This document shows positions 3,669 to 57,618 of a DNA stretch of 64,000 nucleotides, piece after piece. The notes under the pieces were generated by a model. It had not been told where the DNA came from. It made no database searches and was given only the letters and a program-made list of their open reading frames with translations. Origin of the DNA: Euryarchaeota archaeon UBA487 (GTDB lineage: Archaea; Thermoplasmatota; Poseidoniia; Poseidoniales; Thalassarchaeaceae); the NCBI GenBank assembly GCA_002505695.1, contig DAVU01000013.1:27300-91299 (forward strand). The letters are read 5' to 3'. How positions within the stretch are numbered: the first letter of the stretch is position 1; each line of letters begins with the position of its first letter. The translations under genes and the position numbers were made by a program.

Positions 3669-6600
3669 GTGGCGAGTGCGGGCTCAACAAGAGGAGCTGT
3701 GAAAAAAAATGGTAGGGACGTGCCTATCAGGGTGATCACTGCGGCTGCCATTTTCGACGGCCATGATGCTGCCATTGGAATATTCAGGAGAATCTTTCAA
3801 TCAATGGGCTGTGAAGTGATTCACCTTGGCCATGATAGAAGTGCTGAGGACGTAGCCAAGGCTGCCATACAAGAAGACGCGCATCTCATTGCAATCACCT
3901 CCTACCAAGGAGGTGCGGTGGAAATGTTCACACACACCAAGAACCTTCTCAATGCTGCTGGCTTTGGTCATGTCGTTCTAGTCGGCGGGGGTGGCGGCAC
4001 AATACTCCCATCTGAGATAAGGCACCTTCGAGACTCAGGGATCGCGAGAATTTACTCACCGGACGACGGCAGAGAGTTGGGTCTGACCGGCATGGTCCAA
4101 GACGCGATCGACCTCGTCTCTGATCTTGATCTAAACTCAGAATCGAGGTTTAGAAACCTAGAACATATTACCTGCGATGACCAAGGAGGGGTATCCAGAC
4201 TGCTGACTTATGCCGAAAACCATGGATCGAACCTCCATGGTGCCACTGGTGAGGAGAAAGCTGTCTGCCCTGTTATCGGACTCACCGGAACCGGGGGGGC
4301 TGGCAAATCGAGCCTCACGGATGAGTTGGTACTCAGAATAATGAGGGACAATCCCGACACCAAAATAGCGCTCTTAGCGACAGACCCCACGAGGAAAAGG
4401 ACGGGTGGAGCTCTACTTGGTGATAGAATACGGATGAACTCACTGAGAAAGGATGGGACTTTCATGAGGTCGTTTGCCAGCAGGGATAGCGGCAGGGAGC
4501 TCTCGAACGCCATAGGTAGGTCCATCGAGGTCTGCAGATCAGTTGGCTTTGACCTACTAATCGTCGAGACTAGTGGCATCGGACAGGGTGACGATGCCAT
4601 CACAGACATATCGGACGTTTCACTGTATGTGACCACTAGGGAATACGGGGCTCCAAGCCAACTGGAGAAGCTAGCAGCACTGGATTTCGCTGACGTCGTT
4701 GTGCTGAACAAGTTTGACCGACCAGGGGCAGAAGACGCCTTGTTGGAAATAAGAAAACAAGTCCGAAGAAATCGAGAATTGTGGGATCATGATGATTCGG
4801 ATCTACCCGTGATCCCGACAGTGGCTAGTCGATTTGCGGATGCGGGGGTGGACAGGCTCTGGGAAAAGGTTTCTACCCTGATCAACGAGAGATTCTCAAC
4901 GCAATTCATTGCATCAAAAGCTCGAATGTCCGATGATGGGCTACCTGAGCGGTCCCAGCCGTTGCCCCCATCTCGCCACGGTTATTTATCCGAGGTATCA
5001 AAATGCATCAGAGATTATCACGAAAAAACTGAGGCTCAGGCGATTCTTGCAAGCTTAATTCAAGACCTAGAGAACTCCGCTTCAAGGATGAGGGATTCTG
5101 GTAAAACGGAGGCGTCTTTGGATCTGCAGGAGGAGGCTGACAGACTCAGGGCAGAATTGGGCCGGGAAGTCATCGATAGTCTAAGCCTGTTGGACCAAAT
5201 CTCCGAGGATTACTCTTCTGGAAAGACGGATTACCTCGTCAGAGGGAACAAGATAGAGGTCAACACCACCAAGAAGACGCTATCGGGATTGGATCTCCCA
5301 AGAGTTGCACTTCCCACAACGTCGGATTGGGGGGATCGCGTCAGGTGGATTCGGTCAGAAAACCTGCCCGGTGCCTTTCCATACACTGCAGGTGTTTTTC
5401 CTTTCAAACGCGAGGACGAGCTTCCAGTTCGAATGTTTGCTGGCGAGGGTTCTGCGGAAAGGACCAATGAGAGATACCATTTCTTGGCCAACGATCAACC
5501 CTTCAATAGGCTCTCTGTTGCCTTTGATTCACCCAGCCTGTATGGTCATGACCCTGCCACCCAACTAGACATATTCGGGAAAGTCTGTGAATCCGGAGTC
5601 TCAATAAGCACCATTGATGAGATGGAAAGATTGTTTGATGGATTCAATCTCTGTGCTCCTGAGACTAGTGTCTCGATGACGATAAATGGGAACTATTGGT
5701 GGCATCTGGCAGCCTTCTTCCGTGTCGCTCAACGGCAACAAATCAGGATTTTTACAAAGGAAAACGGAAGAGAACCGAATGCGACCGAGGTTGAGGAAAT
5801 CAAGGCTTTCACCCTCTCGAACGTAAGAGGTACCGTACAGGCAGACCAACTCAAAGAGGCGATGGGCCAGAACACCCTCGTATTCAACCTAGACACATCT
5901 CTCCGAATGATGGGTGATGTTGCTGAATTCTATGTCAACAATGGCATAAGGAATCATTACTTCGTTAGCATATCTGGTTATCACATTGCAGAGGCCGGAG
6001 CCAATCCAATTACACAGGCCGCCCTCACGCTGGCTAATGGTCTTACATACGTCGAATTATTCAAGGCAAGAGGTCTTGACCCAGATCAGTTCCTACGAAA
6101 TTTCTCTTGGTTCTTCTCAAATGGCATGGACCCAGAGTATGTCGTAATTGGCAGGGTCGCGAGACGTATATGGTCTATAGCAATGCGCGAGATGTACAAC
6201 GTAGGTGAAAGAGGTCAGAAACTCAAGTATCACATCCAGTCCTCAGGAAGGTCACTGCATGCTCAAGAGTACACATGGAACGACTACCGAACTACCCTTC
6301 AAGCTCTATATGCATTGGCGGATAACGCAAACTCCCTCCATACCAATAGCCGGGATGAGGCATTCGGGACGCCCACGGAGGGGACTGTCAGAGATGCAGT
6401 TGCAATCCAACTCATCCTATCAAAGGAGTATGGATTGCTGCAAAATGAGAATCCGCTGCAAGGGTCACACATAACCACATGGCTAACTGAGAATGTCGAG
6501 GCCCAGATACTGAAAATTTTTGAAGAAATGAATCGAAGAGGAGGGGTCTTGGGGTCTCTGGAGGTTAATTATCAGAGGAATCGAATTCAAGATGAGTCGA

Positions 6601-6944
6601 TGGTATACGAACACAGAAAGCATACAGGCGACATCCCAATCGTTGGAGTCAACACATTCCAAGACCCTGATTCCAAGAACCTTTCAGCCGATGAGGCTGA
6701 CTCTTTCAAGCTTGATGTCACACGATCCGATAGCGATGAGAAGAAAATGGTAATTCTTAGAAACGAGGAATTCAGGGCACGATATGCCAACGAGGCCGAG
6801 ATGGGAATCGAGCGCCTGAAGAACACAGCAAGAGAAGGAGGGAACCTCTTCGAAGTGATGATGGATATCGTTGAGTATTGTACTGTTGGCCAAGTCACAG
6901 AGGCTCTGTTCGAGATCGGTGGCCAATTCAGAAGAAATATGTAG
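3669..6944 (+). CDS. icmF: Fused isobutyryl-CoA mutase (B12-binding domain + MeaB-like GTPase + mutase substrate domain)
   Basis: N-terminal 'DGHDAAIG' (DxHxxG B12 motif). Central P-loop 'GLTGTGGAGKSSL' and 'VLNKFD' (NKxD). C-terminal acyl-CoA mutase barrel, about 1090 aa. GTG start. Confidence 0.85.
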   Translation: MASAGSTRGAVKKNGRDVPIRVITAAAIFDGHDAAIGIFRRIFQSMGCEVIHLGHDRSAEDVAKAAIQEDAHLIAITSYQGGAVEMFTHTKNLLNAAGFGHVVLVGGGGGTILPSEIRHLRDSGIARIYSPDDGRELGLTGMVQDAIDLVSDLDLNSESRFRNLEHITCDDQGGVSRLLTYAENHGSNLHGATGEEKAVCPVIGLTGTGGAGKSSLTDELVLRIMRDNPDTKIALLATDPTRKRTGGALLGDRIRMNSLRKDGTFMRSFASRDSGRELSNAIGRSIEVCRSVGFDLLIVETSGIGQGDDAITDISDVSLYVTTREYGAPSQLEKLAALDFADVVVLNKFDRPGAEDALLEIRKQVRRNRELWDHDDSDLPVIPTVASRFADAGVDRLWEKVSTLINERFSTQFIASKARMSDDGLPERSQPLPPSRHGYLSEVSKCIRDYHEKTEAQAILASLIQDLENSASRMRDSGKTEASLDLQEEADRLRAELGREVIDSLSLLDQISEDYSSGKTDYLVRGNKIEVNTTKKTLSGLDLPRVALPTTSDWGDRVRWIRSENLPGAFPYTAGVFPFKREDELPVRMFAGEGSAERTNERYHFLANDQPFNRLSVAFDSPSLYGHDPATQLDIFGKVCESGVSISTIDEMERLFDGFNLCAPETSVSMTINGNYWWHLAAFFRVAQRQQIRIFTKENGREPNATEVEEIKAFTLSNVRGTVQADQLKEAMGQNTLVFNLDTSLRMMGDVAEFYVNNGIRNHYFVSISGYHIAEAGANPITQAALTLANGLTYVELFKARGLDPDQFLRNFSWFFSNGMDPEYVVIGRVARRIWSIAMREMYNVGERGQKLKYHIQSSGRSLHAQEYTWNDYRTTLQALYALADNANSLHTNSRDEAFGTPTEGTVRDAVAIQLILSKEYGLLQNENPLQGSHITTWLTENVEAQILKIFEEMNRRGGVLGSLEVNYQRNRIQDESMVYEHRKHTGDIPIVGVNTFQDPDSKNLSADEADSFKLDVTRSDSDEKKMVILRNEEFRARYANEAEMGIERLKNTAREGGNLFEVMMDIVEYCTVGQVTEALFEIGGQFRRNM

Positions 6945-18570: not shown

Positions 18571-20004
18571 ATGTACTCAGCCGGGCCACGGGCTCGAGCG
18601 GAGGGGAGTGAGTCGGAATGGTTCGACGGACTCTCTCTGGTCGGGCTGTCAAGACACTTTAGGGCAGTTCTAGACCAGCGAAGCCTTCGTTTTGAGGATG
18701 CCAGAGGCATGGGAACTGCCATTGAGCTCGGTTCAATTGATAGTCTGAGGCAAACCGACATACAGAAATTTTCGAGAACATGGATAGTCATAGGTCTCGC
18801 ATTGATAATTTCATCGTTCAGAGTGTTGGTTGAGCCATATTCCTATCTAGCGGGTTTTTCGGGCATTTTTTGTGTCATGGTGTATGTTGGGTACAGATTG
18901 CCGATATTGGCAATTGATCACAATAGCGGGACCAGGCACCTAATTTCTGGGACCCAAAGCGAATTGCTATACCTCTATCAGATGTTAAACAGGGTAATGC
19001 ACGGACATTCAGTCAATGACGCCAGGATAGAGATAAAAAGATCGTGGATGAGGGTTGAAGAGAACAAGATTGCAACTCAGAATTTGCTACCAGAAAACGT
19101 CACTGATCCTACAACTGCGCATAGTCAGGGCCTCTCCCAAGTAGCCGACCCGCAGTACCACCCGATCATACGCCATGCGCCAACGGAACCCGAGTTAGAG
19201 CCAAAGGGAGGTGTTTTCTCATCGGTATTCGAAGAGCCTGAGATTGAGGAAAAGCTTCCTTTTGATGCCAGCTTCGGATTCTCTGATCAAGAGGATGCTG
19301 GTTTGGAGTGGAGCATGTTTGACGATCCAGCCCCCGCCGAAAAATATGTCCAAGAGGCAATCTCAACAGAGCCTTCAGTGATGAATAATTGGGGATTCCA
19401 ACCCCCAATCAATGAGTCAATTGAACAAACTAGTTCAATGATGATAAAGCGAGCTCACGAAGAATATCGAGGTGTCAAAAACCATGATTTCTCTCTGCCC
19501 AATCCAACAGATGCAGCCGTTCGGGAGGAGTGTCGTCCTGGGATAGTCAAACAAGCCCGAGCGAGGCAAGTTATGAATGACGTCGGGAGAGGCAGAAATC
19601 TTCCAGCACCCAATCCTGTTTTTCGAGGGCCAAGAGGCAAATCGCTAATCGAGAGGCTCTTGGCACCATCCAAAAAGGAAACCAAGGTAAGAATGAGGGG
19701 GAATCGGACCCCTGAATCAGAAACTTTCCCTTCTCCCACAATGAGGTTTTTTTCAACCCAAAGACTCAGGCTCCGAGCTGATCAAGGTCACCAATCGGAG
19801 GTCAGGCTAGGAGGGGCATCTAATAGGTCATTTTCTGATACGGTTGGTCGAGTTGCACTAAATAAGATCGTGAACAAAAGGAGGCTCGCATACGATCAGA
19901 GTAGAGATCATTCAGAGTTGGAGGTTCCGAGGTTTAGTGAGATGAGGCCGAGTGACTACGGCGGTCAGGAAGCCGGGATACCTGGGGTCAGACACCTCAG
20001 ATAA
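18571..20004 (+). CDS. Hypothetical membrane protein with long low-complexity C-terminal region
   Basis: Two adjacent TM helices (residues about 75-115), then about 350 aa that are compositionally biased. No competing ORF. Confidence 0.45.
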   Translation: MYSAGPRARAEGSESEWFDGLSLVGLSRHFRAVLDQRSLRFEDARGMGTAIELGSIDSLRQTDIQKFSRTWIVIGLALIISSFRVLVEPYSYLAGFSGIFCVMVYVGYRLPILAIDHNSGTRHLISGTQSELLYLYQMLNRVMHGHSVNDARIEIKRSWMRVEENKIATQNLLPENVTDPTTAHSQGLSQVADPQYHPIIRHAPTEPELEPKGGVFSSVFEEPEIEEKLPFDASFGFSDQEDAGLEWSMFDDPAPAEKYVQEAISTEPSVMNNWGFQPPINESIEQTSSMMIKRAHEEYRGVKNHDFSLPNPTDAAVREECRPGIVKQARARQVMNDVGRGRNLPAPNPVFRGPRGKSLIERLLAPSKKETKVRMRGNRTPESETFPSPTMRFFSTQRLRLRADQGHQSEVRLGGASNRSFSDTVGRVALNKIVNKRRLAYDQSRDHSELEVPRFSEMRPSDYGGQEAGIPGVRHLR

Positions 20005-24534: not shown

Positions 24535-24778
24535 GATCTCAGAAATATCCTCCAGATGTTGTTCGGCTTTCACCCCAAAGAATCCGCGAATCAAGATTTA
24601 TAGTTTGTAAGAAAAGTGGTAGTATGGCTCAATTTACGAGGTTCATTTATATCAAGAATGCCGCATGAAATCGACCCTTGTTTGGTCAGGTTGAAGGCGA
24701 CGTTTATTATCAATAAGTCCGTCGCGGGAATCCTGCGCATTTGGGCCGTCGAGGTCTGACAGCGTACATGCCAGTCAG

Positions 24779-26044
24779 ATGGAAAAAAACGAGGTCGAAA
24801 CGAAAATGAGAGAGAACATCTTCGACTCGTTAATAGAGTCAGATTCACTTTTCGTAGACCGTCAGGCATTCGAACACGGCTTTGAGCCCGACAGTCTTCC
24901 ACACAGGGAAAAGGAAGTCAGGGGACTCGGAGAAAACTTGGTTGAAGCCTTGAGAGGGCACATACCCTCAAACATGCTTCTCTATGGGGTGCCCGGATCG
25001 GGAAAGACGATAGTTACGAAGACCGTCCTCAAACAACTGAAAAGTAAAGGGAAATCAAATGGAACAGCAGTCAAGGCCTACACAATCAACTGCAGGACAG
25101 TGGATACAAAATACCGAGTTATCCAAGGCTTAGCAAATCGATTGGAACGTGCTGGAGACATAAAGATTCCATTCACCGGATGGCCCACTGACAAAGTACT
25201 GGAAGAGTTTCGAAGAAGGATGGACAGGAGGGGAGGGATACACGTGATAGTGCTGGATGAGATAGATCACCTAGTCTCCAAAGTCGGTGACTCGATAATC
25301 TACAGCCTTACGAACTTGAACCTCGAACTTGAGTCCTCGAAGTGCTGCATTATAGGAATTAGCAACGATCTTCATTTCACAAAGATGCTAACACCCCAGG
25401 TTGCCTCAAGGCTCGCACAAATCGATCTTGTATTCCATCCGTATGGAGCCAATCAAATCAATGACATATTGCAAGAAAGAGTGCGCCATGGCATTCGTGA
25501 AGGCGTCTTAGATCAGAGTGTCGTCGGACTCTGTTCGGCCCTAGCTGCTCAAGAACATGGAGATGCACGAAGAGCCTTAGATTTACTGAGGATTGCTGTC
25601 AAGAAAGCACAGCAAATGGGTCATGACCTGGTTGATAGGGGGCACGTCCGTTTAGCCCAGAGCCAACTCGAACATGATCAACTCACACCAGTCTTGCGAA
25701 CTTTACCGCTACAACAAAAGATACTGTTGTTTTCAATCTGCATAAACGAAGAAAACGGTCTAAAGAATATTTCAACCGGAGAGATCTACAGAACTTACAC
25801 TGAGGTTTGTATGAGAATAATGATAGAACCACTCACCCCCAGAAGAATCTCCTCTTTATTGAACGAGTTGGACAGCCTTGGTATTATCATCGCTAGAAAT
25901 GTTAGCAAAGGACGGGGCGGGAGGAGTAAACAGATTAATTCTGCCCTACCTGAATCACTAGATGTTATGGCTGAAATGAGAGACTCTGAACCTATGATTG
26001 AGGAAGCGTCCAAATCAAAATACCGACTTCAAAGACCCCTTTGA
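24779..26044 (+). CDS. cdc6: Orc1/Cdc6 replication initiator
   Basis: 'LPHREKE', Walker A 'YGVPGSGKT', Walker B 'VIVLDEIDHL', 'GDARRALDLLR', C-terminal winged helix. Confidence 0.85.
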   Translation: MEKNEVETKMRENIFDSLIESDSLFVDRQAFEHGFEPDSLPHREKEVRGLGENLVEALRGHIPSNMLLYGVPGSGKTIVTKTVLKQLKSKGKSNGTAVKAYTINCRTVDTKYRVIQGLANRLERAGDIKIPFTGWPTDKVLEEFRRRMDRRGGIHVIVLDEIDHLVSKVGDSIIYSLTNLNLELESSKCCIIGISNDLHFTKMLTPQVASRLAQIDLVFHPYGANQINDILQERVRHGIREGVLDQSVVGLCSALAAQEHGDARRALDLLRIAVKKAQQMGHDLVDRGHVRLAQSQLEHDQLTPVLRTLPLQQKILLFSICINEENGLKNISTGEIYRTYTEVCMRIMIEPLTPRRISSLLNELDSLGIIIARNVSKGRGGRSKQINSALPESLDVMAEMRDSEPMIEEASKSKYRLQRPL

Positions 26045-26098: not shown

Positions 26099-26617
26099 AT
26101 GTCCGAAAGTTCATGGAAGGGTGAAGTCACCAAACCTAGTGGTTTTCTGTCCATCTTTTCCTTCTGTGCAGGGGTATGGCTATCGCTCGTTTCGGTGATA
26201 AACATACTAATTGGGGCCTTTGCCCCCGGCCAGAAGATTGAATGGTTGGGTTTCTTTTCAGGTTCGACTCTGGCTGATGCATATTCTGAGCACACCTCAA
26301 TTTCGTTGAACTCAGGTGACATTGTGGCAATAGCACTATCCATTCTGTTGATATTCCTTGGGACTAAGGGTATTCAATCAACCATCAGCATGGACAGCTT
26401 CGTCCAGTCGGTTATTCAAAGGCCAGTGAAAATGATGGATGCGAGTGGGAGCATGAGTCAAATATTATCAAACTGGATGGTTGTGGGTGGCTTTGGGTTG
26501 TACATTATCTGGTCAATGATTTACACCACTTGGGTTGATCCTGGAATTTACTCCGTATGCATGGTTATGATAGTGGGAGGGCTTGGTATGGAAGCCCTGT
26601 ATGATGCGAGTGAATGA
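26099..26617 (+). CDS. Hypothetical four-TM membrane protein
   Basis: Four hydrophobic helices. Preferred over the overlapping antisense 104-aa ORF. Confidence 0.45.
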   Translation: MSESSWKGEVTKPSGFLSIFSFCAGVWLSLVSVINILIGAFAPGQKIEWLGFFSGSTLADAYSEHTSISLNSGDIVAIALSILLIFLGTKGIQSTISMDSFVQSVIQRPVKMMDASGSMSQILSNWMVVGGFGLYIIWSMIYTTWVDPGIYSVCMVMIVGGLGMEALYDASE

Positions 26618-26624
26618 TGTTCAA

Positions 26625-27716
26625 TCACACGATTGTTCTCGCCATTTGACTGACGATACTCCTGCAGTTTTCCTTCGCCAGTAGATCAGTAACCCTCGCC
26701 ACGACCCCTTTATTCGGTTGGCCATACAGAACTATCGTTCCAAGGGGCAACATCAAATGTAAGGGAATTGGAGCGAGGTCTTCTTCGCCATCGACAATCA
26801 CAATACTACTCCTTCCTGACCTAAGATGACTCACCGCGATATCGCAGGCACGAAACAAGTCTGATGTGATTGAACCAGCTGGGTTTCTCACTTCTGTTAC
26901 CTCGTCAAACCTCGTTCTATCTATTTCATCGGCTAGACTCCAAGGGCTGCGTTTGGTCATCCCATCGACAATCGCGATATCTGGAGTCATTCCAATTTTC
27001 AACAAGCCCCATGTAGTGACGTCCCCGACAGAAACAATTGGTTCCCTACCATTCAACTCTCCAAGTGCAGATTTCAATGCCAAGGTCGGATCTTCCTCTG
27101 GGCCATGGTAAAGTTTCCCAAACGGGTCTTTTAGTAGAGATTGGACGTCATCTGTCATGAATCTGGTGGATTGTAAAATATCTCTTGTTATGTATCGCAT
27201 GCCAGTCTGATCAATCAACCCATCTCTTATTTTTGAGCTTGAGATTAGTGCCCCATCTTCGCCTTTCTCATGATCTACGACAATTATATCCAAGGGCTTG
27301 ATTCCATTTTGGGCGCGAATTGTATTGATTTGTTCGCAACTGTTTGCAGTGTCACTTGTGCAAAAAATAACGTCGGCACGAGGGTGATCGATGGCGGGCC
27401 CTATCGGGTCTTCTAGAGTACCAAAGGTCGTTCTACCGAGTTGTTCTTGCGTGAGGCTATCTTTGATTGTGGCTTTCCTTTTGTCCTCTGACCAGCATCT
27501 CCAGTCCTTTTCCAGAGCAATTCTGTCACTGGTAATCCAAATCTCCAAAAATTTACAATTTCTTAATGCCTCAGTTATGAGTCGAAAATGGCCGGCATGG
27601 ACCCGATCAAAGGTGCCACCCATCAGGCCGTGTTGGTACATGACCCCGGCATGGTGGGCACTGAACTTGAGGGCTACGGAAGATGTGCCCCGGGGCGTAA
27701 CGGACTCCATCATCAC
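26625..27716 (-). CDS. Fusion: phosphopantetheine adenylyltransferase (cytidylyltransferase type) + GTP-dependent dephospho-CoA kinase (DUF359/COG1909 type)
   Basis: N-terminal 'GGTFDRVHAGHFRLI' (HxGH nucleotidyltransferase). C-terminal 'VSVGDVTT...IAIVDGMTKR...RNPAGSIT...IVIVDGEEDLAPIPL...VLYGQPNKGVV' matches DUF359 hallmarks. The start (GTG 27716 or a later Met) is uncertain. Confidence 0.75.
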   Translation of the reverse strand: MMMESVTPRGTSSVALKFSAHHAGVMYQHGLMGGTFDRVHAGHFRLITEALRNCKFLEIWITSDRIALEKDWRCWSEDKRKATIKDSLTQEQLGRTTFGTLEDPIGPAIDHPRADVIFCTSDTANSCEQINTIRAQNGIKPLDIIVVDHEKGEDGALISSSKIRDGLIDQTGMRYITRDILQSTRFMTDDVQSLLKDPFGKLYHGPEEDPTLALKSALGELNGREPIVSVGDVTTWGLLKIGMTPDIAIVDGMTKRSPWSLADEIDRTRFDEVTEVRNPAGSITSDLFRACDIAVSHLRSGRSSIVIVDGEEDLAPIPLHLMLPLGTIVLYGQPNKGVVARVTDLLAKENCRSIVSQMARTIV

Positions 27717-27876
27717 GATGGCTCCGGGTCCTGACCCACCCCGGGACGTCTGTAGGAGGATGGGGTTGTCCCATGAGTCATTCCGCAGTCGTCTGGGGAC
27801 CCATCATCATCCATCCGTACGATTGCTCCGTTGATCATTCCAAAGGTCACAAGGGTCTTCGTCGTCCGGTCACCCT

Positions 27877-27894
27877 AAACGTGGTACCACGTTT
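27877..27894. repeat. Perfect 18-bp palindrome AAACGTGGTACCACGTTT
   Basis: Read directly; it is self-complementary over all 18 nt. A third AACGTGGT copy lies at 27926-27933. Confidence 0.9.
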
Positions 27895-28002
27895 CATTCT
27901 AGTCCTCCGGCGTGGGGGCGTCGTCAACGTGGTGTTGCCGTTCGGGCAGTTGTTGGAAAGAGGATGGTGATTATGAAATCATGGAATTATGACCAGGACA
28001 TT

Positions 28003-30543
28003 TCATTCCATTGTGCGTGATCTTGTGATCAACAGCCTGGCAGTGATCAGGGGATCGCCTCCTGTTAGGTCAGTATGTGCGATTTCAGGCCATTTGTGAA
28101 GAGGTTGGGCTAACCAGCCAACCAATGGATGTGTCCGACCGGTGTAGGGAGGTAGTCCCATTGTAGCATTCCTCATGGACATAATGAGATCATGGATGTT
28201 TGCTACACTGGCCTCATCCAAGATTTCTATTCCGGGACCATATCGTATTGACTCTTCTAACGCATTCAAGAAACCATCTGAGGGTCCTGGATGGTTGAGG
28301 TCACCGGATCCTGGGAAATGATGTGGTTCCCCACTGGGTCGAAGAGCCAATGCTGCCCATGGGATGCTGCATAGCTCCGCATTATTCCACCATTGTTCGT
28401 TTTTCAACATGTTCAACAATATTTGTTCGGCGAGTGGTGCAAACCATTCCATGGGTATTTGCCTAACAATTTTTACCGAAAACGAGGGAGTCAGCCTTCC
28501 ATTGCCTTCGATCACTCTAACAAACCTTGACCATGTGTGTAAATCCGAGTTGGGTTTGTCCCTCGCTGCAATGTGCACACTGTCAAGTAGAGCTTTTTTC
28601 TCTCTTTCTTTTACGATCTTATAGGCCCCAGAAAGAGAGTCAATAGAACGATCTGGAATGTCGGATAACCATGCCGGTATTGCCCAAGACCTCAGGTCCT
28701 CTGTCATATCTGGAGATATATCTGCCGCAGAAGCCAAGAGTCGGCTTGCGATCCATATAGCGCCTGATGAAGCGGTTTCTGGTGGGGTCAGGGGCCTAAC
28801 CTCATATGGAAAATTAGGATTATCTTTAACCATGGTTGAGAATTTTTCTGAAAATAGTGGTAGTTTTCTTTTGTCTGAAATGTTGATGAATTCATGTAAC
28901 TCTGAGTCTGGAACATCTTCAAACCTGACTAGATCCATCCACTTCTGATCTACTCTTCCTTTGATTCGCTTCCATCTATTCCATCTCATCTTTCTCGGTG
29001 TAGCAATGAGGGCAGCTTCTGGATGTTCTGATTCCACCAAATTAGCCCAATAGTCGTCTTGTTCGTTTTTCTCATTTAGTGCAAGTGAGATGTATTCATC
29101 CTCCACTTCAGAAACCGTAAGTTCCACCGATAGAGAAGAAGACGAGGGTTCTTTTCTGGGATTGGAATCTACCATAGCGACGCTCAATTTTGTGTCATCG
29201 ATGCGTATCGGGGTCTCAATACCATTTTGATCGGTATACCTCGCCCAAGGAAGGGGCCTAGTTGTATCAGAGCTAAGTTTGGCGACTCCTTGGGCCTTAT
29301 ACTCATTACTTGAGAAAATAATTCGCCTTTCACTGTTCCTCAATAGCTGTTTGAACATATATTCAGGTATATCATCGCCGACTTCTATCGCAACAGGAAT
29401 ATCCTCATTAGATTGCAAAACCCATTTGATCAGGGCTTTCCTTGCTCTGATTCCGAGATCTTTCGTACTGATTGTCTCAGATGCCGTTTCCTTCTCTTCG
29501 AATTGGGAATTCCCCCAATCAGCCCTGAACCTTCTCAGAGTCTCCTCGGGGACTCTCGACCTTCTCCTAAGGAGGATCCTGTCCTTCAACGCTTGTGATC
29601 GTCTCCTGAGCTCCGATGGTTTAGTTCTCGGATGGGCCAGTTCTATCCAGCAGTCTAGAACATCCTCTGGTATGCTGGATGGTTTTTTTTTGCTGTCATG
29701 GATGCTCGATATCATCAGGTAATCATCCGGTATTGTCCTAGCAATCAACAATTGTCCCATGCGGCCTTCTATGTCAATTATCAGTAGATTTGGGGCGTAA
29801 ACGGGGCTTACATCTTCATGAAGTGTCCCTATTCTGAGATTAAATCCTGGTTGTGGATGGAATGGATGTTTTACTTCGTTGTATCTTGGTGTGAACCACG
29901 TGCCTGGTGCCAGTGATATGGGTCTTTTTTCACCAATCATCCTGGCGTTAAAAACGTAGACTGGGCGATCTCCTTCGGAAAAGGATTCAATGGAATTTGG
30001 GTTCAATTGAACGTCTGGCATTTCTGCTATTTTTCCAGTGTGCGGATTAATCCACAGACCATCACGACTTTCTACCTCAGCGAGTATCCATTGGGCCCCC
30101 TGATTTCCACTGGAATAATCTCCAGTAGGTTGCCTGTCAGGTATAGCGATCGTTAATTGATTGAATACGACAGTTGATGCCAACACTAGTCGATCTCTAT
30201 CCTTGGATACTAGACAGATATCGCTTTTTGTCGAGGGGATGGGTAAACAAGACTGGGCTCTATGTATTATGTCCTGTATGACAACATTCCTCCCCGAGGG
30301 CGTGAGGTGGATGGACGCTCCCCTTGTACCAGCTGTAGAAGCACTATCAACCAATTTTTCACGCCTGAGCCTCCTCAGTTCTGCCGACACATGCGGCATT
30401 CTTAGGTTAGTGAAGCGAGAAATTTCTGCAACCGTCATATCCGACCTGGATAGTGATGAGAGCACTCTCCTCCGATGGAGTCCCCTTATTCTTTGAGGGT
30501 CAAATGAGGAGTCGTTATTCGATGATTTATCCAATCTTGACAC
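28003..30543 (-). CDS. Large orphan protein with N-terminal ArsR/MarR-like winged helix-turn-helix
   Basis: Uninterrupted 846-codon ORF with a GTG start. Residues about 20-95 ('RRRVLSSLSRSDMTVAEISRFTNLRMPHVSAELRRLRREKLVDS...IHLTPSG') look like wHTH. No motif is recognised in the remaining ~750 aa. Confidence 0.6.
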   Translation of the reverse strand: MSRLDKSSNNDSSFDPQRIRGLHRRRVLSSLSRSDMTVAEISRFTNLRMPHVSAELRRLRREKLVDSASTAGTRGASIHLTPSGRNVVIQDIIHRAQSCLPIPSTKSDICLVSKDRDRLVLASTVVFNQLTIAIPDRQPTGDYSSGNQGAQWILAEVESRDGLWINPHTGKIAEMPDVQLNPNSIESFSEGDRPVYVFNARMIGEKRPISLAPGTWFTPRYNEVKHPFHPQPGFNLRIGTLHEDVSPVYAPNLLIIDIEGRMGQLLIARTIPDDYLMISSIHDSKKKPSSIPEDVLDCWIELAHPRTKPSELRRRSQALKDRILLRRRSRVPEETLRRFRADWGNSQFEEKETASETISTKDLGIRARKALIKWVLQSNEDIPVAIEVGDDIPEYMFKQLLRNSERRIIFSSNEYKAQGVAKLSSDTTRPLPWARYTDQNGIETPIRIDDTKLSVAMVDSNPRKEPSSSSLSVELTVSEVEDEYISLALNEKNEQDDYWANLVESEHPEAALIATPRKMRWNRWKRIKGRVDQKWMDLVRFEDVPDSELHEFINISDKRKLPLFSEKFSTMVKDNPNFPYEVRPLTPPETASSGAIWIASRLLASAADISPDMTEDLRSWAIPAWLSDIPDRSIDSLSGAYKIVKEREKKALLDSVHIAARDKPNSDLHTWSRFVRVIEGNGRLTPSFSVKIVRQIPMEWFAPLAEQILLNMLKNEQWWNNAELCSIPWAALALRPSGEPHHFPGSGDLNHPGPSDGFLNALEESIRYGPGIEILDEASVANIHDLIMSMRNATMGLPPYTGRTHPLVGWLAQPLHKWPEIAHTDLTGGDPLITARLLITRSRTME

Positions 30544-30550
30544 CCTCTGT

Positions 30551-30680
30551 CAATTTTAACAGTTCTAATTATACATATCTTATATAAAAATTTTATTTTA
30601 GTTATATTTTATTACATATTTCTACTAGAATTCTTCTTTTATAATGTCATCTTTCGGTTTATCTAGTTCTTTTGGTCGTG
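30551..30680. promoter_or_regulatory. Extremely AT-rich divergent intergenic tract with TATA-like elements
   Basis: The run 'caattttaacagttctaattatacatatcttatataaaaattttattttagttatattttattacatatttc...' contrasts with the rest of the window. On the minus strand, TTTTTATATA (30590->30581) lies about 40 nt upstream of the 30543 start. Confidence 0.5.
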
Positions 30681-30795
30681 CAACCTGCAACTTGATGTAA
30701 CGAAAAAGCGAACTAAATTGAGAAGCGTTATATTTGAGTCAATAGTCCTGTGAACTAACGCCAACGAGGACGAGGCATGGTAACTGCTTATTGAG

Positions 30796-30828: not shown

Positions 30829-31104
30829 ATGGAGGTGCGGAAATTGCGAACAACAAGACTCAGAGAAAAAATAAAGAAATTCCTAAATGAAAGAGGACAA
30901 GCAAACACAACTGAGATCCTTGAGCATGTGAATTCAACCATGCGCCATGGCACAACTCCACAACAACTGGGCAATGTCCTCTCAAAGGACAAGGATATTC
31001 GAAAGATTGCAACGACCAAGCGAGGTGGCGCGCTTTCGGGCAGATACGAAATTTGTGTATGGACCCTACGAGACGACGATCCAGGGCACGGATTCGAAGC
31101 TTAG
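30829..31104 (+). CDS. Small (91-93 aa) winged-helix-like DNA-binding protein, hypothetical
   Basis: 'RLREKIKKFLNERGQANTTEILEHVNSTMRHGTTPQQLGNVLSKDKDIRKIATTKRGG...YEICVW' has a helix-turn-helix plus beta-wing pattern. Divergent from the 846-aa gene. Confidence 0.45.
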   Translation: MEVRKLRTTRLREKIKKFLNERGQANTTEILEHVNSTMRHGTTPQQLGNVLSKDKDIRKIATTKRGGALSGRYEICVWTLRDDDPGHGFEA

Positions 31105-54609: not shown

Positions 54610-57600
54610 TTATTCGTCAGACATGAAGACTCTAATCAGCACGCCCATTCCGGCTATTGCGACAAATGCAGTTGACAGGATGGCAATGATTTGCATGTTT
54701 CCGTTAAACCAACTATTCCCAGAAACTGAATTATCCTGTTCTATGGCAAGCTGGTGTGATTGCTCACTCAGAGGGGTCATTGATTGGTATATGTCAAAGG
54801 ATCTGATTTGTATATCTATCAGCCCGGGCCCGAGACTCGATCTTGCTTCGAAGATTATGGTGTATATTCCGTCTCCGGCATTCCTATCACCATTCTCTCC
54901 ATCGTCATTAAGTGACAGCCATTTTTCTGAAGACCCAATAGGGGCGAGTCTGCCTATTTTTGCCTGTACTACTGAAACGCCGTCTGGATCGTCAACACCT
55001 ACCTCAATAATATGTGCCGCAGGGCTTTCATTTGCGGACAATATGATTGATTCCGTCATGATGAAGTTAGTCGATTTCTCATCATATTTGGAGAGTGATA
55101 TCGGAGTCATTGAAGGAGGTTCATTCAAGATAACGAAGGATAGTTCGCCATTTGGAGATTCTTTGTGGATTGTTCTAGCACCGAAATTATCAACCAAAAT
55201 TACATTGAACGTTATTTCTCCTGGCCTAACCCCATAAGGCATCATGGTGGTCGCAGTCCAAGATCCGCCCTCCGGCTGCAAGTTTACTTTCTCCCCCCCA
55301 TAATTCCGAAGGTCGACGAAAATCTCGGAGATACCGTGTTGGTCGAAGGCAGATACTCCAATCGAGAATTGGTCCCCCCTAAACAGTCGATTTGCGCTTC
55401 TTTGTAGATCCGAAACCCTCGGACCTGGGTTTGTTAATTCCAGTGAGGATTGCTCAGTTATCGTAACCCATATGTCACTGACGTAAATGGTCACATTGAA
55501 ATCACCAAAAAACGGGCCATCTGAATTGACCTTCGTCGTCCAAATATCGTCGTGGATTACCTGATCTCCACTCAGTCCGGAGTCGGACAACTCAACCAAG
55601 CCGAGTCCTGCTTCAGTTAGATCGAGAATTACATTAGATACATCGGTGTTTGGGTCCTCCACCAAGATTTCGATGTGTGCTTCACCTCCCTCAGACTCCC
55701 ATATAGCCTCCCTGTAAGAGACTTGAACTACTTGTGGGGGAGTGTTCTCGGCAGCAGTTATGATGGATGGCCTTAGGACTCTGTCAACAATTTGAGACTC
55801 AGTGAAAATTGCAGTAGAATTCGAGTCCTCCTCAATCTGTATTTCTCGGGTGCAATTAATTATCAATCCTGCGAGTACCCCCTCGTTCACTGTGCTACCA
55901 GAGGATTGCCCGACTCCAGGATAATGACCAATCCATTCCGCTGAATTTACAGAGTGCCCATCAATTTGGTTAATTGAAGACGTGTTAGTAACTGTTATGC
56001 TCATTGAGACCCTTCCATTGTTAACGAGATCTATTTCATCACCTACTACCAGAATATCAGGAACAAACCCAGATTCTCTGCTGACATTGGAAGAAAGAAC
56101 AGGAACAGACTCAGGAGGAATCGGATCGAGAATGACTGGGCTGTCTCTTGGGAACTCATTGTTGATCGAGCCATCGTCTTCAACGAATCTATACCTGATT
56201 ATCGGAGATTCCCAATCAATATTCGGTGTCATATATTCAAACGTCAAATTGTGATCTGAGTACAGTGACTGGCCAGGTATGGTAACTTGTGATCCAGATA
56301 CATTGAACCAGTACTCATTCCTGATTACCAGGACATCATGCTCCACGCCCTCTGAGTTCAGTTGTTTGCCACTATCGCTGATCATCCTGACTGAGCCGAA
56401 TGATCCTGATACAGTTCCAGTGTATATGCCATCCAAAAGTAATGTGTCTTCAACTAATACGCCGTTAATTTGTTCGGTGTGTAGATTGTCTATTGTGCCA
56501 TTGACCTCTATCTCAACGCCATTTTCATCTTCGATCAGAACATCAAACCTACCATCTCCTCGGAATCTGAGATGCTGTTGAGTCCGAGAGGAGTTCTCCC
56601 ATGTTTCCCTGAAGATGAACTCATCAAGTTCAAAGTCAATATTGTCTGATCCGAATTCAATCAACGCAGAGGCCATGGCCTCTATCCAGAGGTCTTGCTT
56701 CACCCTTTGGCCAGCGATGTCCATGACCTCAAATCGTAATAGTGAAACTTCACCATCTAAATCCAATCTTCCATCTTCATCTGAATTCAAGCTAATTGAT
56801 CCATTGGCCTCTAGAATTAGATGCTCCGATACGACTCCATTTTCAAGTGAACGAGTGTATGAGGCGTCACTCACAGTTCCATTTACGCTTATTCCATTCA
56901 ATCCGTCATCTAGAGTCACGAATATAATTCCAGAGCCTCTGAGTTGGAAGTCCTGTCTCAATAGTTCGCTTTCACTCCAAGATTCATTAATCCATGCGTT
57001 GGTGATTTCAAGTCCTAGTTCGATGGATCTTCCATCATTTTCGAAGAGGAGCTCTATTGTTCCATTACCCAGTTCATTCGCATTGAGGATTGATTGCTGG
57101 CGTTGCTGCCATCCCCTTGCATTCACCTCCAGATAGGCCGCCTCATCGTTGGATTGGAGGGACCAAGAAGTCTCCCTGGTTATCTCGTGGTCTAATGTTG
57201 GTTGATTCCAGACGCTTACGTCGAAAGATCTGTTGCAACTGGCTTCGGAGGATTGAACATCGATAACTATTGTATCCCCGAACTTTGGGGCATTTGACAT
57301 TTGTATGTCTATGGCTCCCCCTGCTACTAGGACGGTATGTGTCCCTATTTGTTGCGAGTTCCCATCAATGTGAGTGGCTGATACATCAACGTTCGTTGGA
57401 TCCACTGATATGGGAAGAGGGGGTTGAAAGTTAACTCTGTATGAATGGCCTACTATCACTTGATCTTCTTCATCCAACGAAGCGTTCCAATCTGCCGTTA
57501 TTTCGCAGGCCCTATGTTCATCAAACTCATTGATTTGTCCGTAAGCGGACATCGAAGACAATGAGATCGAAAACGTCAGGAGCGCCAGAAAAAGAGCAAG

Positions 57601-57618
57601 GAAGGACTTGTTCTTCAT
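54610..57618 (-). CDS. Large (1002 aa) secreted, C-terminally membrane-anchored surface protein
   Basis: N-terminal signal peptide 'MKNKSFLALFLALLTFSISLSSMSAYG'. Acidic, Ser/Thr/Asn/Asp-rich beta-type body. C-terminal TM 'IIAILSTAFVAIAGMGVLIRVF'. Confidence 0.6.
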   Translation of the reverse strand: MKNKSFLALFLALLTFSISLSSMSAYGQINEFDEHRACEITADWNASLDEEDQVIVGHSYRVNFQPPLPISVDPTNVDVSATHIDGNSQQIGTHTVLVAGGAIDIQMSNAPKFGDTIVIDVQSSEASCNRSFDVSVWNQPTLDHEITRETSWSLQSNDEAAYLEVNARGWQQRQQSILNANELGNGTIELLFENDGRSIELGLEITNAWINESWSESELLRQDFQLRGSGIIFVTLDDGLNGISVNGTVSDASYTRSLENGVVSEHLILEANGSISLNSDEDGRLDLDGEVSLLRFEVMDIAGQRVKQDLWIEAMASALIEFGSDNIDFELDEFIFRETWENSSRTQQHLRFRGDGRFDVLIEDENGVEIEVNGTIDNLHTEQINGVLVEDTLLLDGIYTGTVSGSFGSVRMISDSGKQLNSEGVEHDVLVIRNEYWFNVSGSQVTIPGQSLYSDHNLTFEYMTPNIDWESPIIRYRFVEDDGSINNEFPRDSPVILDPIPPESVPVLSSNVSRESGFVPDILVVGDEIDLVNNGRVSMSITVTNTSSINQIDGHSVNSAEWIGHYPGVGQSSGSTVNEGVLAGLIINCTREIQIEEDSNSTAIFTESQIVDRVLRPSIITAAENTPPQVVQVSYREAIWESEGGEAHIEILVEDPNTDVSNVILDLTEAGLGLVELSDSGLSGDQVIHDDIWTTKVNSDGPFFGDFNVTIYVSDIWVTITEQSSLELTNPGPRVSDLQRSANRLFRGDQFSIGVSAFDQHGISEIFVDLRNYGGEKVNLQPEGGSWTATTMMPYGVRPGEITFNVILVDNFGARTIHKESPNGELSFVILNEPPSMTPISLSKYDEKSTNFIMTESIILSANESPAAHIIEVGVDDPDGVSVVQAKIGRLAPIGSSEKWLSLNDDGENGDRNAGDGIYTIIFEARSSLGPGLIDIQIRSFDIYQSMTPLSEQSHQLAIEQDNSVSGNSWFNGNMQIIAILSTAFVAIAGMGVLIRVFMSDE

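Follow-up and report, generated by a model that had tools for sequence, protein, structure and literature searches.

A winged-helix protein family with a predicted ATPase-dead HerA-like region, encoded at a candidate replication origin of Marine Group II archaea

A stretch of 64,000 nt from Euryarchaeota archaeon UBA487 (Thalassarchaeaceae, Poseidoniales; assembly GCA_002505695.1, contig DAVU01000013.1, positions 27,300 to 91,299) was analysed with regard to an 846-aa protein, encoded at 28003..30543 on the minus strand. The whole stretch is referred to as the window. Our preferred interpretation, held tentatively and with somewhat less than even confidence, is that of an order-specific, ATPase-dead HerA-like DNA-binding protein, which is encoded at a likely chromosomal replication origin (oriC) bound by Orc1/Cdc6 and probably also acts there. 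The interpretation was derived from sequence comparisons and structural models. The coding sequence was delimited by the open reading frame (ORF), full-length homologues and an AlphaFold2 model; it comprises a winged helix-turn-helix (wHTH), a HerA-like pseudo-ATPase region and a novel helical domain. The family is confined, as far as the searches reach, to Candidatus Poseidoniales, the Marine Group II archaea.

In the surface ocean, Marine Group II is one of the most abundant groups of archaea. To our knowledge, none of its members has ever been cultured and their replication is without experimental knowledge. The locus is the best candidate found for a replication origin of this group, judged from its sequence. 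It provides a concrete, testable origin candidate, at which two DNA-binding proteins specific to the lineage are encoded. Once the origin is known, the peak-to-trough ratios of metagenome coverage, from which growth rates are estimated, could be anchored for Marine Group II.

Intragenic ORB-like element

For origin recognition boxes (ORBs) of euryarchaea the consensus GTTCCAGTGGAAAC-AAA----GGGGG was published (PMC1868953). The mini-ORB of Pyrococcus is TTCCAGTGGAACT, with TTCC and GAA invariant (PMC1904270), and TTCC-N3-GGAA is the archaeal mini-ORB core. An ORB-like element consisting of a mini-ORB and a G-string, TTCCAGTGGAAATCAGGGGG, was found at 30096..30115 (minus strand) within codons 143-150 of the 846-aa gene. 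No other exact match exists in the window. Across the loci this site lies at +421 to +451 and reads (T)TCCAnnGGAA-N5-GGGGT; the version of locus L001 is TTCCAGTGGAAACGAAGGGGT. The elements at 30096-30115, in L001 and at the intergenic site described below fit the euryarchaeal consensus.

The specificity of the pattern was examined in 91 loci with 1.21 Mb on both strands. TCCA-N2-GGAA-N5-GGGG occurred 71 times on this site and not once off-site. When TTCCANNGGAA was searched with one mismatch across the window, 29 occurrences were counted at 27.5 expected, which is chance level. Only the exact, extended ORB pattern is informative.

The codons that carry the element are almost fixed at their synonymous positions. 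Third-position entropy was 0.36 bits for S144 and 0 bits for both G146 and G149, compared with a mean of 1.75 bits for the 127 conserved four-fold codons. The other 124 of these sites showed 1.04-2.1 bits, none of them below 1.04. TCC was used for S144 in 35/37 sequences, GGA for G146 in 34/34 and GGG for G149 in 37/37. The encoded loop, S-x-G-[NST]-x-G, had a predicted local distance difference test score (pLDDT) below 50 in both structural models, the full-length one and that of residues 100-470. Because of this low confidence in both models, selection is considered to act on a DNA signal and not on the protein. An ORB frozen in coding sequence would illustrate clearly how a signal in DNA can dictate the amino acids of a disordered loop. 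A precedent exists for ORBs inside a coding gene, namely the ORB cluster of Pyrococcus dp1.

Intergenic spacer and AT-rich tract

In accordance with the earlier note, the gene starts next to the most AT-rich tract of the window. Positions 30553..30652 contain 15% GC, with a window mean of 47.7% and 28% GC in the next-lowest 100-nt window. By its composition this tract is a candidate duplex-unwinding element. It lies beside the ORB-like site at -90 and includes the TATA-like box of the 846-aa gene (30581-30590, minus strand, about -48). The base composition of the 846-aa gene equals that of its flanks, with the spacer as exception.

The spacer separates the gene from a divergent gene of the DUF3860 family. 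In an alignment of 44 non-redundant loci it was strikingly conserved for non-coding DNA. On the sense strand of the 846-aa gene it consists of the probable TATA box of the DUF3860 gene, TTAGTTACATATAGTTGCA, GTGGAAATGAAACT, a mini-ORB/repeat element, the TATA-like box, the Shine-Dalgarno sequence and the start codon. The mini-ORB/repeat element (30591..30636, minus strand) is unique in the window. Its order-wide consensus is TTTCCAnnGGAAATATGTAAYnAAATGTAACTAAAA, in which two ATGTAAY-type repeats, 11 nt apart, follow the mini-ORB. GAAATATGTAA was detected in 24 of the 44 loci, versus at most three in shuffles, and TTTCCAnnGGAAAT was intergenic in 27 of them. The same alignment revealed two distal conserved blocks (30686..30734, minus strand) with presumed promoter or repeat roles. 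One of them corresponds to TTAGTTACATATAGTTGCA, in which the ATGTAAC repeat is present in inverted orientation; the second, TGATATAACgcTTCT, probably serves the DUF3860 gene on the opposite strand as TATA box.

The start codon GTG had been assigned by the earlier note together with the limits of the ORF, and both were retained. The GTG column is conserved in the alignment of the 44 upstream regions, the GTG aligns with the start of most relatives and a GGAGGTG Shine-Dalgarno sequence precedes it in most lineages. Public gene calls for the identical protein place the start three codons downstream, which results in 843 aa.

Winged helix of the 846-aa protein

The ArsR/MarR-like wHTH recognised from the first residues could be verified. 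An ArsR/SmtB-type wHTH was located at residues 20-100 (30244..30486, minus strand) by Pfam, profile and structure matches. Pfam HTH_5 (ArsR) matched residues 24-66 with an E-value of 2.8e-5 and 24.3 bits, the curated cut-off being 22, and it matched 22 of 40 family members. Weak matches to ArsR/SmtB families of NCBIfam fell on the same N-terminal segment, and ArsR and MarR proteins matched it in a profile search against solved structures. With Foldseek, SqrR, SmtB, MepR and ST1710 were found with probability 1.0 and root-mean-square deviations of 2.2-3.9 A over about 70-88 columns; the alignments to MarR, SmtB and SqrR, also with probability 1.0, span about 70-100 residues. Throughout the order the recognition helix, L-R-M-P-H-x-S, hardly varies, with H51, S53 and R60 invariant in 40 sequences. 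The isoelectric point (pI) of the domain is 11.7.

Residues 24-66 share the fold of ArsR/SmtB and MarR regulators and superpose on SmtB, SqrR and MepR. Those regulators are dimers of 100-150 aa with metal or ligand sites, whereas here the wHTH makes up the first 12% of 846 aa.

HerA-like middle region

For the remaining ~750 aa the earlier note had seen no recognisable family. This is true for sequence methods. Searches of Pfam, NCBIfam, PDB, PADLOC and PHROGs gave nothing past residue ~100, neither for the 846-aa protein nor for 40 relatives, and a profile of residues 100-470 found nothing among PDB sequences. By structure the statement could not be maintained, as residues 100-470 match HerA. 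The AlphaFold2 model of the full-length protein, built with a 40-sequence alignment, had a mean pLDDT of 85.9; its predicted template modelling score (pTM) of 0.52 leaves the geometry between the domains uncertain. It is composed of the wHTH (20-100), a beta-rich part (105-290), three Arg-rich helices (295-345), an alpha/beta part (357-448), a disordered linker (454-468) and an all-alpha domain (477-846). Modelled alone, residues 100-470 reached a pLDDT of 83.4 and a pTM of 0.78.

The full-length model yielded nothing below an E-value of 1e-3 in a Foldseek search of the PDB; wHTH matches and long alignments of low TM-score to F1-ATPases were obtained, the latter among the top matches. Among the viral structures of BFVD only wHTH matches were found. 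For residues 100-470 the best match was chain 9x1l_A, HerA in the HerA-NurA complex of T. kodakarensis (E-value 2.7e-8, probability 1.0, TMq 0.47, 575 columns), followed by the FliI, F1, V1 and EscN ATPases with E-values of 1e-4 to 1e-3. In each of these ring ATPases an N-terminal barrel sits on a RecA-like core. According to this search, the F1-ATPase alignments of the full-length model reflect a real HerA/F1-like fold, as far as predicted structures can tell.

The HerA-like region was assigned to residues 105-450 (29194..30231, minus strand) on the basis of the separate model, Foldseek, motif scans and the domain order of HerA. It comprises a beta-barrel (~105-175), a RecA-like alpha/beta part (~185-290), a helix bundle (292-345) and a second alpha/beta part (355-450). 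HerA consists of a HAS-barrel and a RecA-like domain with an inserted helix bundle that forms the DNA entrance, and shares with residues 100-470 the order barrel, alpha/beta, helix insert, alpha/beta (PMC9960219). The three-helix insert of residues 292-345 (29509..29670, minus strand), defined by secondary structure, conservation and charge, is Arg-rich with a pI of about 10 and contains the family-invariant residues W299 and H304-P-R306. By analogy, it would occupy the position of the DNA-entry helix bundle of HerA.

The motifs of an active ATPase were not detected. As reported before for the single protein, there is no Walker A motif: GxxxxGK[ST] was present in 0/59 full-length family members. 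As for Walker B, no acidic residue among residues 100-470 was conserved in at least 80% of 40 aligned sequences, except D342, which is part of a DWG motif in the helix insert. A DIEG motif of close relatives is lost in distant family members, and the RecA-like part of the family alignment shows no identifiable arginine finger. No nurA, mre11 or rad50 gene was found in any neighbourhood examined. HerA differs furthermore in length, its aligned part being about 210 residues longer. The 846-aa protein adds an N-terminal wHTH and a novel helical domain of 370 aa, the place of the Walker A/B motifs of HerA is empty in its family, and there is no NurA partner gene nearby. Because the ATPase motifs and a link at sequence level are missing, the middle region was filed as a HerA-like fold and not as a member of the HerA family.

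Proteins of the FtsK-HerA superfamily with a winged helix are known from FtsK, the gamma domain of which reads sequence. FtsK and the 846-aa protein have in common a sequence-reading winged helix and the motor fold of this superfamily. FtsK carries its winged helix at the C-terminus and has an active motor, whereas in the 846-aa protein the winged helix is N-terminal and ATPase motifs are absent. An FtsK/HerA-type fold without ATPase motifs, fused to a sequence-reading domain, would be an uncommon case.

C-terminal domain

The all-alpha, Trp-rich domain of residues 477-846 (28006..29115, minus strand) was defined by the model and the family alignment, and it holds most of the family-invariant residues. 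Both Trp-rich stretches quoted by the earlier note as conserved-looking turned out to be family-wide motifs, with W729, P744, H805, L811 and W818 invariant in 40 sequences; E504, R526, W671 and W700 are further invariant residues. The strongest family-wide motifs are GDExxANxxE...PLAAWIASP...RxxRWxRI, IPWxAL.LRP.GE and GRTHPxVGWLAxPxxxWP. For the 370 aa of this domain no relative was found in sequence or structure by profile searches and by Foldseek against PDB and BFVD. Also in line with the earlier description, the protein has no transmembrane segment; the highest Kyte-Doolittle mean over 19 residues was 1.08.

Several other assignments were tried for the conserved His, Arg, Glu and Trp residues. 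HEPN, Toprim and DDE-transposase readings, an (alpha/alpha)-barrel glycosidase and a tyrosine recombinase (HxxR) were dropped, since motif spacing, conservation or fold matches were lacking.

Distribution and synteny

The protein had been regarded as an orphan, which was not confirmed. When 1.8 billion cluster representatives (50% identity) were searched exhaustively with HMMER, 99 relatives were detected, about 59 of them full length (760-910 aa), with identities down to 22%. With a motif scan of one genome per GTDB species, for which a 7-sequence alignment served as query, the gene was found in 129 species genomes. The 80 genomes listed of these 129 all belong to Poseidoniales, Thalassarchaeaceae or Marine Group II, or are metagenome-assembled genomes named generically as Euryarchaeota, Methanobacteriota or Thermoplasmatota. 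The deepest branch carries the NCBI name Candidatus Poseidoniales; the sole annotation of its protein is 'winged helix-turn-helix domain-containing protein'. A word-indexed homologue search with a 40-sequence alignment gave nothing beyond 15 close proteins already found, and the 846-aa protein was not found in the viral contigs of IMG/VR.

The order of the genes is fixed: GlpX, aldolase, DUF3860 (reverse), spacer, 846-aa gene, non-coding gap, a coenzyme A (CoA) gene of PPAT/DUF359 type, a 172-aa protein and Orc1/Cdc6. The spacer measures 220-290 nt and the gap after the 846-aa gene 270-450 nt. This synteny is kept at protein identities of 21-52%. In the deepest branch the outer neighbours differ, with DeoC for the class I aldolase; the order DUF3860, 846-aa gene, PPAT is unchanged. 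In all loci examined that reach far enough, the position was identical throughout the order. The locus is core, vertically inherited DNA and not an island, and the 846-aa gene represents a vertically inherited, single-copy, conserved but unannotated family of Marine Group II. The protein itself evolves fast, with about 30% identity where Cdc6 has about 65%, the aldolase about 60% and DUF3860 80-90%.

For two genomes, UBA182 (L013 6001-8866) and UBA4 (L081 6001-8798), the homologous gene region exceeded that of the other loci by about 260-330 nt, and the reading frame of L013 is terminated at codon 382. These two genomes could contain a pseudogene or an insertion here, or could be misassembled.

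Proposed role

The AT-rich spacer and the ORBs would together form a region bound by Orc1/Cdc6, most likely the chromosomal origin or one of the origins. The 846-aa protein may be an origin- or chromosome-associated DNA-binding factor that acts at the spacer or elsewhere on the chromosome. Its wHTH would anchor it to a conserved site, for which the ATGTAAY repeats beside the mini-ORB are the obvious candidates. The ATPase-dead HerA-like body is predicted to be an oligomeric, possibly ring-shaped scaffold that contacts DNA, not a motor; the basic wHTH and the basic helix insert would make the contacts. Binding of Orc1/Cdc6 probably also controls transcription of the 846-aa gene and of the divergent DUF3860 gene.

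The gene for the initiator Orc1/Cdc6 was identified by Pfam and by comparison of neighbourhoods at 24779..26044 (plus strand), always in the same syntenic block. Known archaeal origins, such as those of Pyrococcus and oriC1 of Haloferax, share with the locus the TTCC-N3-GGAA core with a G-string at the consensus spacing, a very AT-rich neighbouring tract and cdc6 in the same conserved block. They possess several, typically inverted ORBs and cdc6 as neighbour, in contrast to two sites with a half-site and cdc6 5.8 kb off at this locus. Origin-adjacent, lineage-specific winged-helix factors are known from Sulfolobus (WhiP/Cdt1-like at oriC3) and from haloarchaea ('oap' genes). There, likewise, a lineage-restricted gene for a DNA-binding protein is situated beside an origin. 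WhiP is a small protein of two winged helices without a HerA-like body; its likeness to the 846-aa protein is one of placement and restricted distribution. No paper on an origin of Poseidoniales was found in the literature.

Several observations count against an origin factor at an origin. The cdc6 gene is not adjacent but 5.8 kb from the ORB cluster in the window; across the loci it was always present, at a distance of 5.8-6.9 kb and with three genes between. The ORB-like sites number only two, about 520 bp apart, plus one half-site, and their orientation relative to each other is not clearly the inverted one that is classic around an AT-rich tract. In the clade of the window itself the intergenic mini-ORB is degenerate, reading TTCTAGTAGAAAT; this clade has retained the intragenic ORB and the ATGTAAY-type repeats intact. 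No origin signal was obtained from GC skew, which in the 64-kb window follows the orientation of the genes. A divergence as fast as that of the 846-aa protein (~30% versus ~65% identity for Cdc6) is unusual for a core replication factor. Since the entire 15-kb block is syntenic in the order, the position is no proof of the function of the protein. With regard to the fold, chain 9x1l_A was not among the 50 listed matches of the full-length model, and therefore the HerA match hangs on the isolated model of residues 100-470. No sequence-profile link to HerA was detected, with neither Pfam DUF87 or HAS-barrel nor a PDB HerA match.

In favour of the proposed origin, no ORB-like motif was found in the region directly upstream of cdc6. 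This spacer (24535-24778 in the window; 32 loci) is much less conserved than that between the DUF3860 gene and the 846-aa gene. The sole word shared, weakly, is GAATCCGCG / ACGCGGATTC in 11 of the 32 loci.

Alternative explanations

The main rival is a plain, autoregulated transcription factor, the wHTH of which binds its own divergent promoter at a locus unrelated to replication. We consider this rather unlikely. The large body would serve as a sensor or oligomerisation module, and the TTCCAnnGGAA palindromes at -90 and +430 would be operators of the protein itself instead of Orc1/Cdc6 sites; the palindromes would be compatible with reading by Orc1 or by the 846-aa protein alike. Autoregulated operators typically show such a layout, in which two genes diverge and a conserved palindrome directly precedes the TATA box, but an operator 430 nt into the coding region, held at synonymous sites throughout the order, would be unusual for simple autoregulation. 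The wHTH is of ArsR/MarR type, and ArsR-type dimers bind inverted repeats; the fold of the body, however, is that of a DNA translocase and not of a ligand-binding domain. The near-invariant recognition helix and the near-invariant DNA element are conserved together, and fast evolution is found for many regulators, whereas the G-string (GGGGT) at the intragenic site is spaced as in the ORB consensus and the spacer with its 15% GC is exceptionally AT-rich. A more ambitious version of our preferred assignment regards the 846-aa protein as a new archaeal origin factor, an ATPase-dead HerA-like ring that is tethered by its wHTH to the ORB-like palindromes or ATGTAAY repeats. We judge this version to be unlikely. 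If true, the factor would work with Orc1/Cdc6, and perhaps DUF3860, in origin definition, MCM loading or origin segregation. As a component specific to the lineage, it would extend the initiation machinery of archaea and be encoded atop its own binding region.

An active DNA translocase or repair factor, in which the HerA-like region binds and hydrolyses nucleoside triphosphates via a non-canonical site during recombination, repair or segregation, is still less probable. HerA is the nearest fold, yet Pfam DUF87 and HAS-barrel matches are none, and the NurA, Mre11 and Rad50 genes were not found in the neighbourhoods examined. The wHTH would play the part of the sequence-reading gamma domain of FtsK, which in general offers a precedent for a winged helix with a motor of this superfamily. 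Even with the Arg-rich insert at the position of the DNA-entry bundle of HerA, GxxxxGK[ST] is missing from all 59 members, and neither a conserved Walker B acidic residue nor an arginine finger was identified in the RecA-like part. The idea of a lineage-specific DNA-binding machine, put forward in the earlier note, is supported in its core, and the origin factor mentioned there gains circumstantial support from the ORB elements. The mobile-element remnant and the defence regulator named alongside are disfavoured. A remnant or an anti-virus regulator inserted between housekeeping genes would explain an unannotated large body with a wHTH and metabolic genes on either side, but there is one copy of the gene, in a block whose synteny persists at protein identities as low as 21-24%, its composition equals that of the flanks apart from the spacer, and neither integrase, transposase nor repeat boundaries were found. 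A generic repeat finder gave nothing meaningful around the 846-aa gene. Weak PADLOC matches to Csa3, CasR and CARF-associated wHTH regions had E-values of ~1e-3 or above and covered only residues ~20-88, i.e. the wHTH; with PHROGs, too, there was nothing beyond weak matches to this domain. Csn2 was among the weak fold matches; the absence of the protein from IMG/VR speaks against such an origin of the gene. This last explanation is close to refuted.

DUF3860 neighbour

The small wHTH-like gene, which had been described as divergent from the 846-aa gene, was identified as DUF3860 (30829..31104, plus strand) by Pfam (E-value 9e-39), structure match and locus comparison. The closest PDB entry is 2od5. 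DUF3860 is 80-100% identical across loci where the 846-aa protein has about 30% identity, and it is more conserved than every neighbour, Cdc6 (~65%) included. Such constraint suggests a chromatin-like or core nucleic-acid-binding role. No paper mentioning DUF3860 was found in the literature.

Homologues of DUF3860 with 53-71% identity were present in five putative viral contigs of IMG/VR (L091-L095), without the 846-aa protein. In the one contig examined (L092, 4998-5465) the homologue is located near a split SNF2-family helicase and an RFC-like AAA+ clamp-loader subunit, a region that by its sequence appears to be a replication module. The five contigs may be viruses of Marine Group II. This viral context fits, circumstantially, a DNA-replication or chromatin role for the gene pair.

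Two tandem DUF3860 genes were called in L006 (7124-7630). Many other loci of Thalassarchaeaceae (in the range L019-L064) show the same spacing of about 515 nt upstream of the 846-aa gene, which probably holds a divergent second copy of DUF3860.

Downstream RNA and other genes

The GC-rich gap directly 3' of the stop codon of the 846-aa gene contains a conserved multi-hairpin RNA on the same strand (H/ACA-like small RNA, core 27684..27948, minus strand). Rfam matches to the archaeal H/ACA family HgcG/Pab40 were below threshold, with 20-28 bits versus a gathering score of 77 and E-values of 1.4e-3, 6e-6 and 8e-6. They were found at one syntenic place in three distant loci (27684-27948 in the window, L027 8484-8744 and L009 10527-10776). 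In an 11-sequence alignment 36 of the 65 predicted pairs showed compensatory changes, and ACA-type boxes follow the hairpins. At the gathering threshold only two tRNAs were detected by Rfam. Probably, Marine Group II possesses in this RNA a divergent H/ACA guide RNA. It is a neighbour of the 846-aa gene, and the relation of both is positional.

The neighbour of the CoA pathway (26625-27716, minus strand) is a cytidylyltransferase-like (PPAT-type) domain fused with DUF359. Its longest ORF probably begins about 25 codons before the true start and thereby reaches into the region of the RNA gene. Between the CoA gene and cdc6 an ORF of 172 aa (26099-26617, plus strand) has hydrophobic stretches and no Pfam family. 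It is kept in nearly all loci examined that reach that far, with about 30% identity throughout the order.

The 846-aa gene had been named as the largest of the window without a recognised family, which needs correction. The ORF 54610..57618 (minus strand, 1002 aa) is likewise without a Pfam match (E-values up to 1e-5), as is a further large ORF at 18571-20004 (plus strand, 477 aa). A fusion of 1091 aa at 3669-6944 (plus strand) combines B12-binding, MeaB GTPase and methylmalonyl-CoA-mutase-type domains (IcmF-like) and belongs to ordinary metabolism.

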